A DNA stretch of 55,677 nucleotides, the filler included, from an uncultured virus (IMG/VR IMGVR_UViG_2512564001_000011) (lineage: Duplodnaviria; Heunggongvirae; Uroviricota; Caudoviricetes). It is 5 parts of one record of this genome, joined end to end, with 100 filler letters (N's around TTAATTAATTAA, not from the genome) between each part and the next. Parts side by side here need not be neighbours in the genome. Positions count along the whole stretch, not along the records: positions 7,754 to 30,209 come from IMGVR_UViG_2512564001_000011; 4 more parts are not named here. One strand, written 5' to 3'. A model generated the notes under the pieces. The model saw only the letters and a program-made list of their open reading frames with translations. It was not told the origin of the DNA and did not search any database. The number at the start of each line of letters is the position of its first letter. The stretch's first letter is position 1. Position numbers and translations under genes: made by a program. This document shows, piece by piece, positions 9,430-30,209 of this stretch.

Positions 9430-9638
9430 AATATGATGCCGGCGCGCAGGATATTACCCGTGCCTTTATGGCAATTAGACGTGCCACGACCGCCAGTGGG
9501 AACCGTCCCACCTATGAAGCAGATCGCAGTGAAGATGCCAGTCACGCCGATTTGGCCTGGGCCACCATGCATGCGCTGTACCATGAACCGTTAACCGGTG
9601 ATGGTCAGCAACACAAACCGATTATCGAGTTCTTTTAA
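9430..9638 (+). pseudogene. P: 3' remnant of P2-like terminase ATPase P
   Basis: Near-identical to about 34375-34583. Confidence 0.9.
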
Positions 9639-9639
9639 T

Positions 9640-10665
9640 ATGCGAAAAACGAAAAAACACACGCTCACCACCCCCAAAAAATCGTCAGTAGAGGCCTTTA
9701 CCTTTGGTGACCCAGTGTCCATGCTTGACCGCCGCGAGATTTTTGATTATCTGGAATGTTCACTTATTGATAATTACTACGAGCCGCCGATAAGTTTTGA
9801 AGGCTTGTCACGCATTTTTCGGGCTGCTGCCCATCATAGCAGTGCCATTTATGTCAAACGCAATATTTTAAGCAGTACCTTTGTGCCACATCCATGGTTA
9901 AGTCGGCAGGATTTTGACTGTTTTGCGCTGGATTTTCTGATTTTTGGCAATGCGTATCTAGAGCGGCGAAAAAATGGCTTAAATAAAACAATTTCGCTTA
10001 AATCCATCCCGGCTAAACTCACTCGGCGTAGTGAGGATTTAGCCACTTACTCCCTTTTGCATGCGGGGTTTGACAGCGTGCCGTTTACGTTTCAGACGGG
10101 GCAGGTTTTTCATTTGCTGGAGCCGGATATCAATCAGGAAATCTACGGCTTGCCGGAATATCTGGCCGCCATGACCGCCATTTTACTCAATGAATCGGCG
10201 ACGCTTTTTCGCCGTAAGTATTATCTCAACGGCTCCCATGCCGGCTATATCCTCTATATCAATGATACAATAAAATTCCAGGATATTGATAATCTTCGCG
10301 AACAGCTAAAAAGCAGTAAAGGCTTGGGGAACTTTCGCAATCTGCTTTTGTATTCACCCAATGGCAAAAAGGATGGCATACAAACTATTCCTTTATCGGA
10401 AGCCGCCGCGAAAGATGAATTTTTAAATATTAAAAACGTCAGTCGCGACGATATGTTAGCGGCTCATCGTGTGCCCCCACAATTAATGGGCATTATGCCG
10501 CAAAATGTCGGGGGATTTGGGGACGTACAAAAAGCGACTAATGTGTTTATCTGCAACGAATTACATCCGTTGCAGCACAAAATGCAGCAGCTTAATGAGT
10601 GGCTAGGCGAAGAAGTGATTCAATTTACCCCGTACGCCTTGAATCGGATAAAAAATAAAATCTAA
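9640..10665 (+). CDS. Q: P2-like portal protein
   Basis: EAFTFGDP, YGLPEY, AAHRVPPQLMG. Confidence 0.95.
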   Translation: MRKTKKHTLTTPKKSSVEAFTFGDPVSMLDRREIFDYLECSLIDNYYEPPISFEGLSRIFRAAAHHSSAIYVKRNILSSTFVPHPWLSRQDFDCFALDFLIFGNAYLERRKNGLNKTISLKSIPAKLTRRSEDLATYSLLHAGFDSVPFTFQTGQVFHLLEPDINQEIYGLPEYLAAMTAILLNESATLFRRKYYLNGSHAGYILYINDTIKFQDIDNLREQLKSSKGLGNFRNLLLYSPNGKKDGIQTIPLSEAAAKDEFLNIKNVSRDDMLAAHRVPPQLMGIMPQNVGGFGDVQKATNVFICNELHPLQHKMQQLNEWLGEEVIQFTPYALNRIKNKI

Positions 10666-10787
10666 TCCTTGCACAAGGTGTTTAACTGTGCCTCAGAAAG
10701 CCCCGTTAATTGCTGGATGATTTTTTATTCAACCGGTTTGGGATAACCTAAAACCTATCTTTTTTTCATTAAATTTTAAAAATAGCA

Positions 10788-28183: not shown

Positions 28184-28791
28184 GAGGCGCTAATCCTTAC
28201 GGTATCAATCAGGTGTAATGCCACCGCGTGTTGTACGGTGCCGCGGGTGCTAATCAATGCGGGTGTGTAAGCATAAACCGTTAATTCATCGCCCAGGTAG
28301 ACACTCGCACCCGTAAAAAAAGTGCCGCGCGTTTCCAGTTGAATCGACAACCCCAACAAGTGCCGACTGGCCGGCTTCGCATCTTCAATCAACGCTTCAA
28401 TCTCATGATACATCGATTCCGTGATGCCACTTTCCAGTACGCCAATGTCTAATCGAAAGGTGCCGGGCGCATCGCCCGTTTTCCACCATTCAATCACCCG
28501 TATCAGGTAGCCGAGCGGTTCAACAACGCGCCGCAGTGCGCCGATGGTACCTTTATGCTGATGAATAAAGAGCGCGGCTTTAATCGCCTCGCGTTTGGTT
28601 TTCTCCGACCAGTCTTTATCCCACCTGTCAACGCTGAAACTCCAGGCCAGATAAGGCAGCAAATGGACGGGGCACGTGTCCGGATCCATCAGCGTGCGAA
28701 GCGGGATGGGTAAGGTCTTAATCTGTGACAACGCCACTGAGGCCGCTTTTTCAAGCGCCGTGGAGCCGGTCGGTAATAACGTCTTATGCAT
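28180..28791 (-). CDS. I: Baseplate gpI
   Basis: LLPYLAWSFSVDRWD. Confidence 0.95.
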   Translation of the reverse strand: MHKTLLPTGSTALEKAASVALSQIKTLPIPLRTLMDPDTCPVHLLPYLAWSFSVDRWDKDWSEKTKREAIKAALFIHQHKGTIGALRRVVEPLGYLIRVIEWWKTGDAPGTFRLDIGVLESGITESMYHEIEALIEDAKPASRHLLGLSIQLETRGTFFTGASVYLGDELTVYAYTPALISTRGTVQHAVALHLIDTVRISAS

Positions 28792-29695
28792 CGGTTTTGC
28801 TCTCCATCTTAAGATTGATGTCGGTGCAAAAGCTGGCTTGCGTTTTGGCTATCTTGATATCCTGTTTCGGTGTGTGAATCACCACCCGGGTTACGCCAGT
28901 GACGTGTAAGGCGGCATACAGCGCGCTTAAGGCCACATCGCGGCCTAATCGGTGTTGTTCGCGCGTATAGGCGGTCAACTTTTCGTGTGCCGTTTGTAAA
29001 ATCGGTTCATATTCCGGCGCAGGTAACAGATAAAGCGTGGCATCGACCTGATAGGCGAGAATGTCGGCCGATTGCACCGTAACCCGGTCGGCGACGGGTC
29101 GCACATTTTCATCATTAAGGGCGGTTTCCACCGTGTTAATCAGGGTTTGACTGGCCGTGCCATCCCCCTCGCGTGACAGAATAGTCACGGTCACTTCCGC
29201 GGGTTTCGGGCTAATGACCGAGGCATCGGCGACCTGTCCATCCGCGCTGCGGGCGTAAAATTCGTAGCTGCCGGTAGGGCCGGCTACACTCAGCCCTTCA
29301 AAGGCGGCCGGGATACGCAGACGTAAATCGTTATCGGATTCAAAGAGGGGCTGCACGGGTGGGATAGCCGTCGCGTCGCCTTCAGATAAGCGTAGGCGTT
29401 TAACATTGTTATTGGCCGCCAGATGGTCAAGGTCGGCACCTTGGGCAAAGGCCACCATATTGGCTAAGGCCGCTTCATTAATGCGGCTTCGCAACAGCAA
29501 ATCATAATAGGCGTTCTCTTCCAGTAACTTGGTCAACGGTTCAGAGGGCAGCGCCAGGGTTTGCGCGACAGCATCGCGGATTTCAGCCGGACACGCGGCA
29601 ATCAGCGTATGTTTACGCCGGGCAAGCAGGGTGTCAAAATCCAGTATCTCAACCACATCCGGTTTTGGTAACTGGCTTAAGTCGATCGTTGTCAT
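28784..29695 (-). CDS. J: Baseplate gpJ
   Basis: IDLSQLP, SVAGP, VRPVADRV. Confidence 0.95.
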   Translation of the reverse strand: MTTIDLSQLPKPDVVEILDFDTLLARRKHTLIAACPAEIRDAVAQTLALPSEPLTKLLEENAYYDLLLRSRINEAALANMVAFAQGADLDHLAANNNVKRLRLSEGDATAIPPVQPLFESDNDLRLRIPAAFEGLSVAGPTGSYEFYARSADGQVADASVISPKPAEVTVTILSREGDGTASQTLINTVETALNDENVRPVADRVTVQSADILAYQVDATLYLLPAPEYEPILQTAHEKLTAYTREQHRLGRDVALSALYAALHVTGVTRVVIHTPKQDIKIAKTQASFCTDINLKMESKTDA

Positions 29696-30036
29696 CTCGG
29701 GCTCACGGGAAAATGAAAGGAAAACGCGGCGCCACTGTCGATAATTTGCGCCACAATGGCAATCTGCGAAGTCTCTGCGTGTTGGTCGATGTTAATTTTT
29801 TCGAGTCTGATCCGGGGTTCAAAGCGTAAAAGCGCGCTAAAACAGGCTGCCATCAATTGCAGTGTTAATGCCGGGGTTTGGGGTTTATCCAGCAGGCTAA
29901 ACAGCAGTGACCCATAGTCACGGCGCATAACCCGACTGCCCACCGGGGTCAGTAAAATATCTTGCACTGACTGGGCAATATGCGCATTTTCGCTAATAAA
30001 TCGGCCGGTTTGCCGGTTCATCCCTAAGGCATTCAT
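29692..30036 (-). CDS. W: Baseplate gpW
   Basis: DILLTPVGSRVMRRDYGS, EPRIRL. Confidence 0.95.
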   Translation of the reverse strand: MNALGMNRQTGRFISENAHIAQSVQDILLTPVGSRVMRRDYGSLLFSLLDKPQTPALTLQLMAACFSALLRFEPRIRLEKINIDQHAETSQIAIVAQIIDSGAAFSFHFPVSPR

Positions 30037-30209
30037 TGGGGTTCCTCCGTCATGGCGCTGCCGCGTTCAACACCGCCGTGGCGATGGTTATCAACCCGAA
30101 TGCCGTTAGACATCAAGGCACCCCCCGAGTGGGTGACATCCCCTGCCATCTGTGCGCCTTGAGTGACCGTGAGTGACGAGGTGGTCAGATTATGGCGACA
30201 AATAACCTT
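30033..30209 (-). CDS. V: Baseplate spike gpV, C-terminal part (scaffold end)
   Basis: SNGIRVDNHRHGGV with HxH tip motif; not in the ORF track. Confidence 0.85.
   Translation of the reverse strand, partial: KVICRHNLTTSSLTVTQGAQMAGDVTHSGGALMSNGIRVDNHRHGGVERGSAMTEEPQ

Follow-up and report, generated by a model that had tools for sequence, protein, structure and literature searches.

How would a phage of the P2 type persist in its host when the place normally taken by its integrase and attachment site holds plasmid genes? This question is raised by a locus from an uncultured virus (IMG/VR IMGVR_UViG_2512564001_000011). P2 itself has the gene order ogr-attP-int-C-cox...A...Q-P and lysogenises by integration. 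The window, i.e., the whole stretch of DNA analysed, is a concatenated draft of 55,677 nt, in which the element studied lies on the scaffold at positions 7754-30209, with N gaps at 12618-12717, 17489-18091, and 27510-27896; its genes were named by Pfam and PHROGs profile searches. The initial annotation had proposed a plasmid replicon in place of int/attP and lysogeny as a partitioned plasmid, adding that the element might be defective or helper-dependent. The former proposal is supported by a closed, near-identical circle, by three free circles of like order, and by the absence of integrase, while the latter finds no support. The element is probably a complete Arsenophonus phage genome of the P2 type whose int/attP has given way to a plasmid module, and it would lysogenise as a partitioned circular plasmid while keeping the lytic growth driven by gene A.

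The near-identical copy is plasmid paPv10 from the insect symbiont Arsenophonus nasoniae (NZ_CP123514.1), a closed circular record of 33,818 bp whose RepA is 100% identical to that of the window. Positions 12720-35038 of the window are colinear with paPv10 at 99.3-100% identity, the blocks 12720-17488, 18092-19141, 19242-27508, 27897-30209, and 30310-35038 being aligned in this order; the last of them, located on the next scaffold, matches positions 16661-21389 of the closed record at 99.9%. paPv10 represents a whole P2-type genome with head, tail, and lysis genes, gene A, a cos-like site, cox/C, and ogr. It supplies the genes lying outside the window, namely S, R, a methylase gene, lysis genes, X, L, rpn, gene A, and early genes, so that both circularity and gene A, which the initial annotation had left to be checked, are present in the deposited record. 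The gap at 17489-18091 beside the HU gene corresponds to about 0 bp in paPv10 and is bridged by contigs of sequencing runs X3 and X6, whose shorter flanks measure 41 and 50 letters; the same joint occurs in runs X1 and X2 with only 27-28 letters, below the 31-letter rule, and the window may itself derive from X1. The gap at 27510-27896 amounts to about 1 bp relative to paPv10, and the window pieces of the H gene it interrupts have open frames that keep the register of the 462-aa H protein of the sister plasmid pArsFIN13.

In paPv10, the int/attP slot holds luxR, an RHH-like gene, parA, repA with eight iterons, HU, and a res-like site. In the window, the P2 switch consists of cox (12786-13058, minus strand; PF10743, E 3e-26; phrog_272), which encodes the lytic-side repressor, and the divergent gene C of the immunity repressor (13194-13505, plus strand; HTH_3; phrog_147, E 4e-29), for which matches of 36-57% are found beside cox and int in integrative relatives. 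The module itself includes a gene for a luxR-type regulator (13607-14221; GerE, E 9e-9) and an open reading frame (ORF) of 46 aa (14218-14358), both on the minus strand; 66 of the 74 PLSDB records matching this region come from Arsenophonus, where it is part of a plasmid module. The next gene on the same strand (14434-14724) likely encodes a ParG-like centromere-binding protein of the RHH type. It has no Pfam or NCBIfam match, so the RHH call of the initial annotation finds no profile behind it, but ESM Atlas gives CopG/RHH look-alikes at 0.97, and in relatives RHH_1 or ParG fills this slot. It is followed, again on the minus strand, by a short, type Ib-like partition ATPase ParA (14801-15451; NF041546, E 5e-27, under the curated cut-off; phrog_164) and by the plasmid initiator RepA of the RPA family (15573-16484; PF10134, E 4e-76; 1181 matching PLSDB records). 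A predicted plasmid origin (16534-16892) lies upstream of repA and comprises eight exact CGGCTTTTAGTTACC iterons at 16534-16774, which occur nowhere else in the window, as well as matches at 16674 and 16884 to the DnaA-box pattern. The module also contains the gene of an HU-family protein (17139-17411, plus strand; PF00216, E 9e-37).

As the initial annotation had stated, cox/C and par/rep share one ungapped contig, which runs from cox to HU. The GC content of this cassette is 34% vs 50% in the head and tail genes. The luxR-par-repA-HU block recurs on many Arsenophonus plasmids, which are likely the donor pool of the module. Candidate centromere boxes, four of whose five matches in the window lie around parA, are a lead only, since the pattern was chosen after looking, and a promoter/terminator scan found 11 signals, below the 18.1 expected from shuffled sequence.

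A tyrosine integrase and attP behind C are the hallmark of integrative P2 proper. A six-frame search with a hidden Markov model built from the integrases of 13 relatives gave nothing below E 4.8 in the window and four closed circles, in agreement with the earlier observation that no integrase follows C. Neither a replicon contig lying away from the tail genes nor an int or att in the gaps came to light. Among the best 80 of 121 IMG/VR loci related by Cox, 77 have an integrase within 3.5 kb behind C (16 of 16 tested were confirmed by Pfam), and the contigs of the remaining three end 253-1300 bases upstream. Likewise, the best 80 of 599 gene A loci include pArsFIN13 itself; an integrase is present in 68 of the other 79, and RepA or ParA matches in none of these 79. 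Nine of the 11 loci without integrase have about 4 kb or less upstream and two have 6.2 kb, and the one of these two that was read ends after a repressor-like gene and a single additional ORF. A quick tree was made from 26 gpA rows (three plasmid-type and 23 hand-picked integrase-bearing, with a midpoint root on long branches); in it, the plasmid-type rows form one group (support 100) nested in two successive starred groups that bear integrase. One genome (G005) carries an int-C-cox prophage with a matching early gene order and a gpA of 58% identity. Because integrases are found in the close relatives, the plasmid-type gpA rows are nested, and such an int-C-cox prophage exists, the loss of integrase is likely a derived state. 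Integrated relatives in Arsenophonus were found only as decayed gene A pieces without a nearby integrase, in three genomes (G002, G003, and G004).

The arrangement is not confined to paPv10. Seven PLSDB records carry the capsid of the element at 99% identity or more: four free circles of 33.6-36.3 kb, namely paPv10, pArsFIN13 (NZ_CP038625), paNv_UK11, and paNv_CH11, and three plasmids of 146-148 kb, which are cointegrates. The search for other C-par-rep-ogr arrangements thus yielded three further free circles; the layout is common to all four, their extrachromosomal state resting on the depositors' assemblies. The virion, lysis, and A proteins are 90-100% identical among the copies. Between differing cassettes, identity is 70-81% for RepA, 23-28% for ParA, and 46-71% for C, and the iteron core sequence varies together with RepA. 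The Cox of the paPv10 type, which is that of the window copy, is only 27% identical to the Cox of the other copies, those being 96-100% identical among themselves. Within each of the two strains checked, aNv_UK and aNv_CH, the free copy differs from the cointegrated one in RepA and ParA. Although the sample is small, this is the pattern to be expected of active replicons under selection for change through incompatibility. Two tandem C genes are present in paNv_UK2 and paNv_CH2 (69% identical in paNv_UK2).

The wider search for this layout was made with a single RepA query, distant RepA types being outside its scope. Outside A. nasoniae, the layout was found in none of 27 genome loci (P2 genes occur only at one of them, L004). 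Among three viral loci, it is present only in the pArsFIN13 copy, and among 18 metagenome loci and another 11 regions taken from a family sample of 251 genomes, of which 12 matched, only on one draft scaffold (G001:C40), which shows the same order as the closed records. On plasmids of A. nasoniae aIh (L033, 22310-26355; L034, 21084-22994), a repressor/cox pair precedes a plasmid repA of another type, and the annotation lists no P2 virion genes; in paIh6, a repressor/cox pair with repA adjoins repA-parA.

Head, tail, and baseplate genes of the P2 type stand in P2 order, and the terminase is about 67% identical to that of Fels-2 and its kin. The minus strand carries the late-gene activator gene ogr (19232-19447; PF04606, E 1e-22), the tail operon FI FII E/E' T U D (19486-25740; Pfam, PHROGs), and the baseplate and fibre genes V (3' part) W J I H G (25788-30209; Pfam, PHROGs, and alignment with paPv10). 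A T-run near the end of E, together with an open -1 frame, makes a candidate frameshift site for E/E'. The next scaffold (30310-35038; PHROGs and alignment with paPv10) belongs to the same element and contains M (in part), N, and O on the minus strand, and an intact P (32847-34583) and the 5' part of Q on the plus strand. The places and strands that the initial annotation had given for cox, C, luxR, parA, repA, HU, the protease gene, ogr, D to W, and the 3' end of V agree with the Pfam and PHROGs searches. In the closed record, outside the window, gpA is full length (662 aa; PF05840, E 6e-94) and bears HWH and YIAKY motifs. A cos-like stretch of 52 bp between Q and A is 82.7% identical (E 2e-4) to the cos predicted by PhageTerm for Burkholderia phage Mana; this candidate cos lies in a block conserved in all four aligned copies.

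A cargo gene for a trypsin-like protease (18247-19182, plus strand; PF13365, E 2e-15; H, D, and S motifs present) is missing from the other three free circles. Both the window (19142-19241) and a contig of run X1 contain 100 bp whose absence from the deposited paPv10 removes the 3' ends of the protease gene and ogr there. The slot between Q and cos is variable and holds an M85 (NleC-like) protease gene in three circles (pArsFIN13, 19618-21150) and an Rpn gene in paPv10 (21961-22878) and the cointegrates.

The initial annotation had also joined cox, across a gap, to an effector gene, Q, and P. In the closed circle, cox is followed by the early genes, gene A, rpn, Q, and an intact P, and the contig at 7754-12617 is 100% identical over 4864 bp to positions 36841-41704 of another plasmid, the 94-kb paPv3 (NZ_CP123507.1), where a resolvase gene follows the matching region; its identity to the element's own P-Q is only 92.8%. 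This mis-scaffolded contig contains an insertion sequence (IS) of the IS3 type (8176-9356), a 3' fragment of a second P (9430-9638), a second Q (9640-10665), and a gene for a PipB-like pentapeptide effector (10788-12173). It ends with a 105-bp repeat (12514-12617), the left flank and half of res site I, which recurs as an inverted copy (88.6%) at 18115-18218 beside the protease gene; the false join is attributed to this recurrence. Since the contig belongs to paPv3, the element itself has neither a broken P nor the effector, nor does it lack gene A. Three candidates were rejected accordingly: an invertible cox-HU cassette flanked by the 105-bp inverted repeat, whose left copy sits on another plasmid; the effector as cargo of the element; and helper dependence through absent A and P, both of which exist in the closed circle, so that the suspected defect stems from a chimeric scaffold. 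The first scaffolds of the window (1-7653) also match paPv3 (99.4-100%) and hold a second repA-HU module, 75.9% identical to the element's repA, as well as a 923-aa ORF annotated as DUF6543 in the paPv3 record. Positions 35139-55677 are a further scaffold with many ORFs, and 325 bp are exactly repeated on both sides of the gap at 45545-45864 (window 45220-46189), probably a scaffolding overlap artefact.

The position of attP, between HU and the ogr side, is occupied by a res-like site (17413-18121, minus strand) recognised by its likeness to the sites of resolvase plasmids and by three pairs of GTAC half-sites, in line with the general anatomy of res sites; the N gap inside it is about 0 bp. 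The same site is located directly upstream of a Resolvase-family gene in paPv3, pArsFIN5, pArsFIN6, paPv6, pArsFIN3, and pArsBee5, and it is conserved in an unannotated Vibrio plasmid matching the same resolvase gene. The element has no resolvase gene of its own, and at least five other plasmids of the strain bearing paPv10 carry one. In pArsFIN5, a P2 tail arm is joined to res and resolvase, the sequence being identical to pArsFIN13 up to site I and resembling a resolvase plasmid beyond it. This single junction is compatible with a crossover at site I, although homologous recombination between the shared sequences may also account for it. The fused region of pArsFIN5 (9896-16089) further includes HigAB and head genes of another phage, and an IS3 cuts its other side. 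Other Arsenophonus plasmids with phage genes (L224, L225, and L226) have a terminase gene, res, resolvase, and a toxin-antitoxin pair in a row.

A life cycle can be proposed that would fit the observed gene content and order, the deposited circular topology, the absence of integrase, and the variation of the cassette. A free plasmid state is likely because plasmid replication and partition genes sit where relatives carry integrase. In lysogeny, C would repress cox and the early operon, and RepA would bind the iterons and replicate the circle independently of C, given that the rep-par-luxR genes are oriented towards C rather than leading away from it. The circle would be segregated by ParA and the RHH protein, and dimers might be resolved at the res-like site by serine resolvases from co-resident plasmids. 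The roles of C, Cox, gpA, and Ogr and packaging from cos are well known for P2; by analogy, Cox would repress C in lysis, gpA would start rolling-circle replication, Ogr would turn on the late genes, and the 33.8-kb circle would be cut at cos and packaged. No excision is needed, and therefore Cox would act only as a repressor. Historically, an integrative ancestor may have acquired the module from a resident Arsenophonus plasmid, the rep/par/C cassette having then been repeatedly exchanged; such exchange would create new types of incompatibility and immunity and so make co-residence possible. A broader version of this scheme is tentative and on balance doubtful. It supposes a P2 lineage after integrative-to-plasmid conversion, in which the module is an exchangeable incompatibility-and-immunity cassette and the orphan res site is a stand-in att, used in trans by co-resident resolvases both for dimer resolution and for joining phage arms to plasmids, while the phage would act as a shuttle for modules and effector cargo across the symbiont plasmid pool.

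Several points weigh against a phage-plasmid with a complete life cycle. The element is known here from genes and circular records, and the lytic capacity of A. nasoniae prophages is called unclear by Frost 2020 (PMC7157526). P is split beside an IS21 in both cointegrates examined (of three), C of pArsFIN13 is truncated at 56 aa (27932-28102), H is annotated as two ORFs in the paPv10 record, from which the 100 bp at the protease and ogr ends are also missing, and no homolog of P2 gene B was recognised by Pfam and PHROGs among 10 early ORFs. Either sequence errors or decay may explain the split H, the 100-bp loss, and the truncated C. Circularity is weak evidence when taken by itself: of four other P2-capsid circles examined in PLSDB, two have an integrase and resemble excised prophages, one has ParA without integrase, and one has no integrase, rep, or par match. 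The gpA tree was built by a quick method and has long outgroup branches, and the function of res rests on sequence likeness and one natural recombinant.

Some of these points would suit a domesticated or decaying phage-plasmid, that is, a plasmid with a recently captured P2 genome that no longer completes the lytic cycle. The IS-split P of the cointegrates, the truncated C, dam broken in two copies, P2 remnants on other plasmids, and the unrecognised gene B all speak for it, but it is unlikely in view of the four free circles, where every ORF for virion, lysis, and gene A proteins has its full length, the split H annotation of paPv10 excepted, the size stays within 33.6-36.3 kb, and the C/cox switch has diversified rather than vanished. 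More improbable still is a two-state element, free at times and at others joined to other plasmids via the res-like site or IS elements, the fused form serving as a regular reservoir. Three cointegrates do exist, and pArsFIN5 joins the tail arm to res and resolvase with the switch inside site I; yet both cointegrates examined, being broken within P, look like dead ends, and resolvases normally favour resolution over fusion. An assembly artefact that joined an integrated P2 prophage to an unrelated plasmid deserves hardly any credence: the window is indeed a draft with one false join, and the res-like repeat occurs at the second join too, but cox-C-par-rep is ungapped, the closed long-read records of four strains and the draft scaffold mentioned above agree on the order, and contigs of X3 and X6 cross the HU gap.

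By gene content and topology, the element is thus a real P2-type phage-plasmid, more complete and less unprecedented than the initial annotation held. Because a single backbone occurs with four types of cassette in a symbiont that can be cultured, it can be tested whether the swap of one module suffices to change the lysogenic mode and how incompatibility and immunity diversify; the element may also be a vehicle that carries cargo genes of the symbiont from strain to strain.

Elements of this kind are not new, since P2-like plasmid prophages have been published and the sister pArsFIN13 has already been catalogued. NZ_CP038625 is listed as P-P, VP882_comm (Pfeifer and Rocha 2024, PMC10879196), and four circular prophage-only elements of A. 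nasoniae FIN, unnamed in the text, were classed as plasmids by Rep or addiction genes (Frost 2020, PMC7157526). Arsenophonus elements, KS14, and P88 were placed in the VP882 community (Pfeifer 2021, PMC7969092). In the parts available, a preprint by Siozios (10.1101/2023.05.02.539033) does not use the term phage-plasmid, PMC12090721 and PMC13202766 mention Arsenophonus phage-plasmids in general terms, and PMC12977533 and PMC13586616 do not mention Arsenophonus. No description of the int-slot replacement, cassette swapping, the orphan res site, or the P2 anatomy of pArsFIN13 was found in this literature; supplements and subscription papers may hold one.

Among the closest known systems is pArsFIN13 from A. 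nasoniae FIN, which shares the backbone (90-100% at the protein level), the layout, and the lack of integrase with the window element, but differs in RepA (81%), ParA (25%), Cox (27%), and iterons, and in cargo, having the M85 protease beside Q instead of the trypsin-like protease beside ogr. Fels-2, RE2010 and kin, and the G005 prophage share the virion module, gene A, the early order, C/cox, ogr, the cos-like site, and genome size, but have a tyrosine integrase behind C, where the window element has the replicon. Two other circles, the P88-like E. coli NZ_CP148288 and Haematospirillum NZ_CP014526, also combine a P2 capsid with partition genes. The former keeps its integrase and has ParM beside gene A, unlike the window element; the latter, 33 kb in size, has ParA, a recombinase, and several toxin-antitoxin pairs beside Q, with no gene A, Cox, C, or integrase match, and is probably an independent P2-like phage-plasmid. 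Burkholderia phage KS14 is a P2-like phage without a tyrosine integrase whose plasmid prophage was demonstrated by plasmid preparation (Lynch 2010, PMC3091744), and, like the window element, it has P2-like virion genes, Rep, and ParA. Table 4 of that paper, however, shows no KS14 match to P2 A, Cox, C, or Ogr; rep/par of KS14 adjoin portal Q, and it has a serine recombinase of its own, whereas the window element keeps the P2 early region and switch, with the module in the int slot. Pfeifer and Rocha 2024 (PMC10879196) followed the change of P1-like phage-plasmids to plasmids or to integrated prophages; the Arsenophonus element seems to have gone the other way, from an integrative phage to a phage-plasmid that retains the full P2 switch and lytic initiator and has clear module boundaries.

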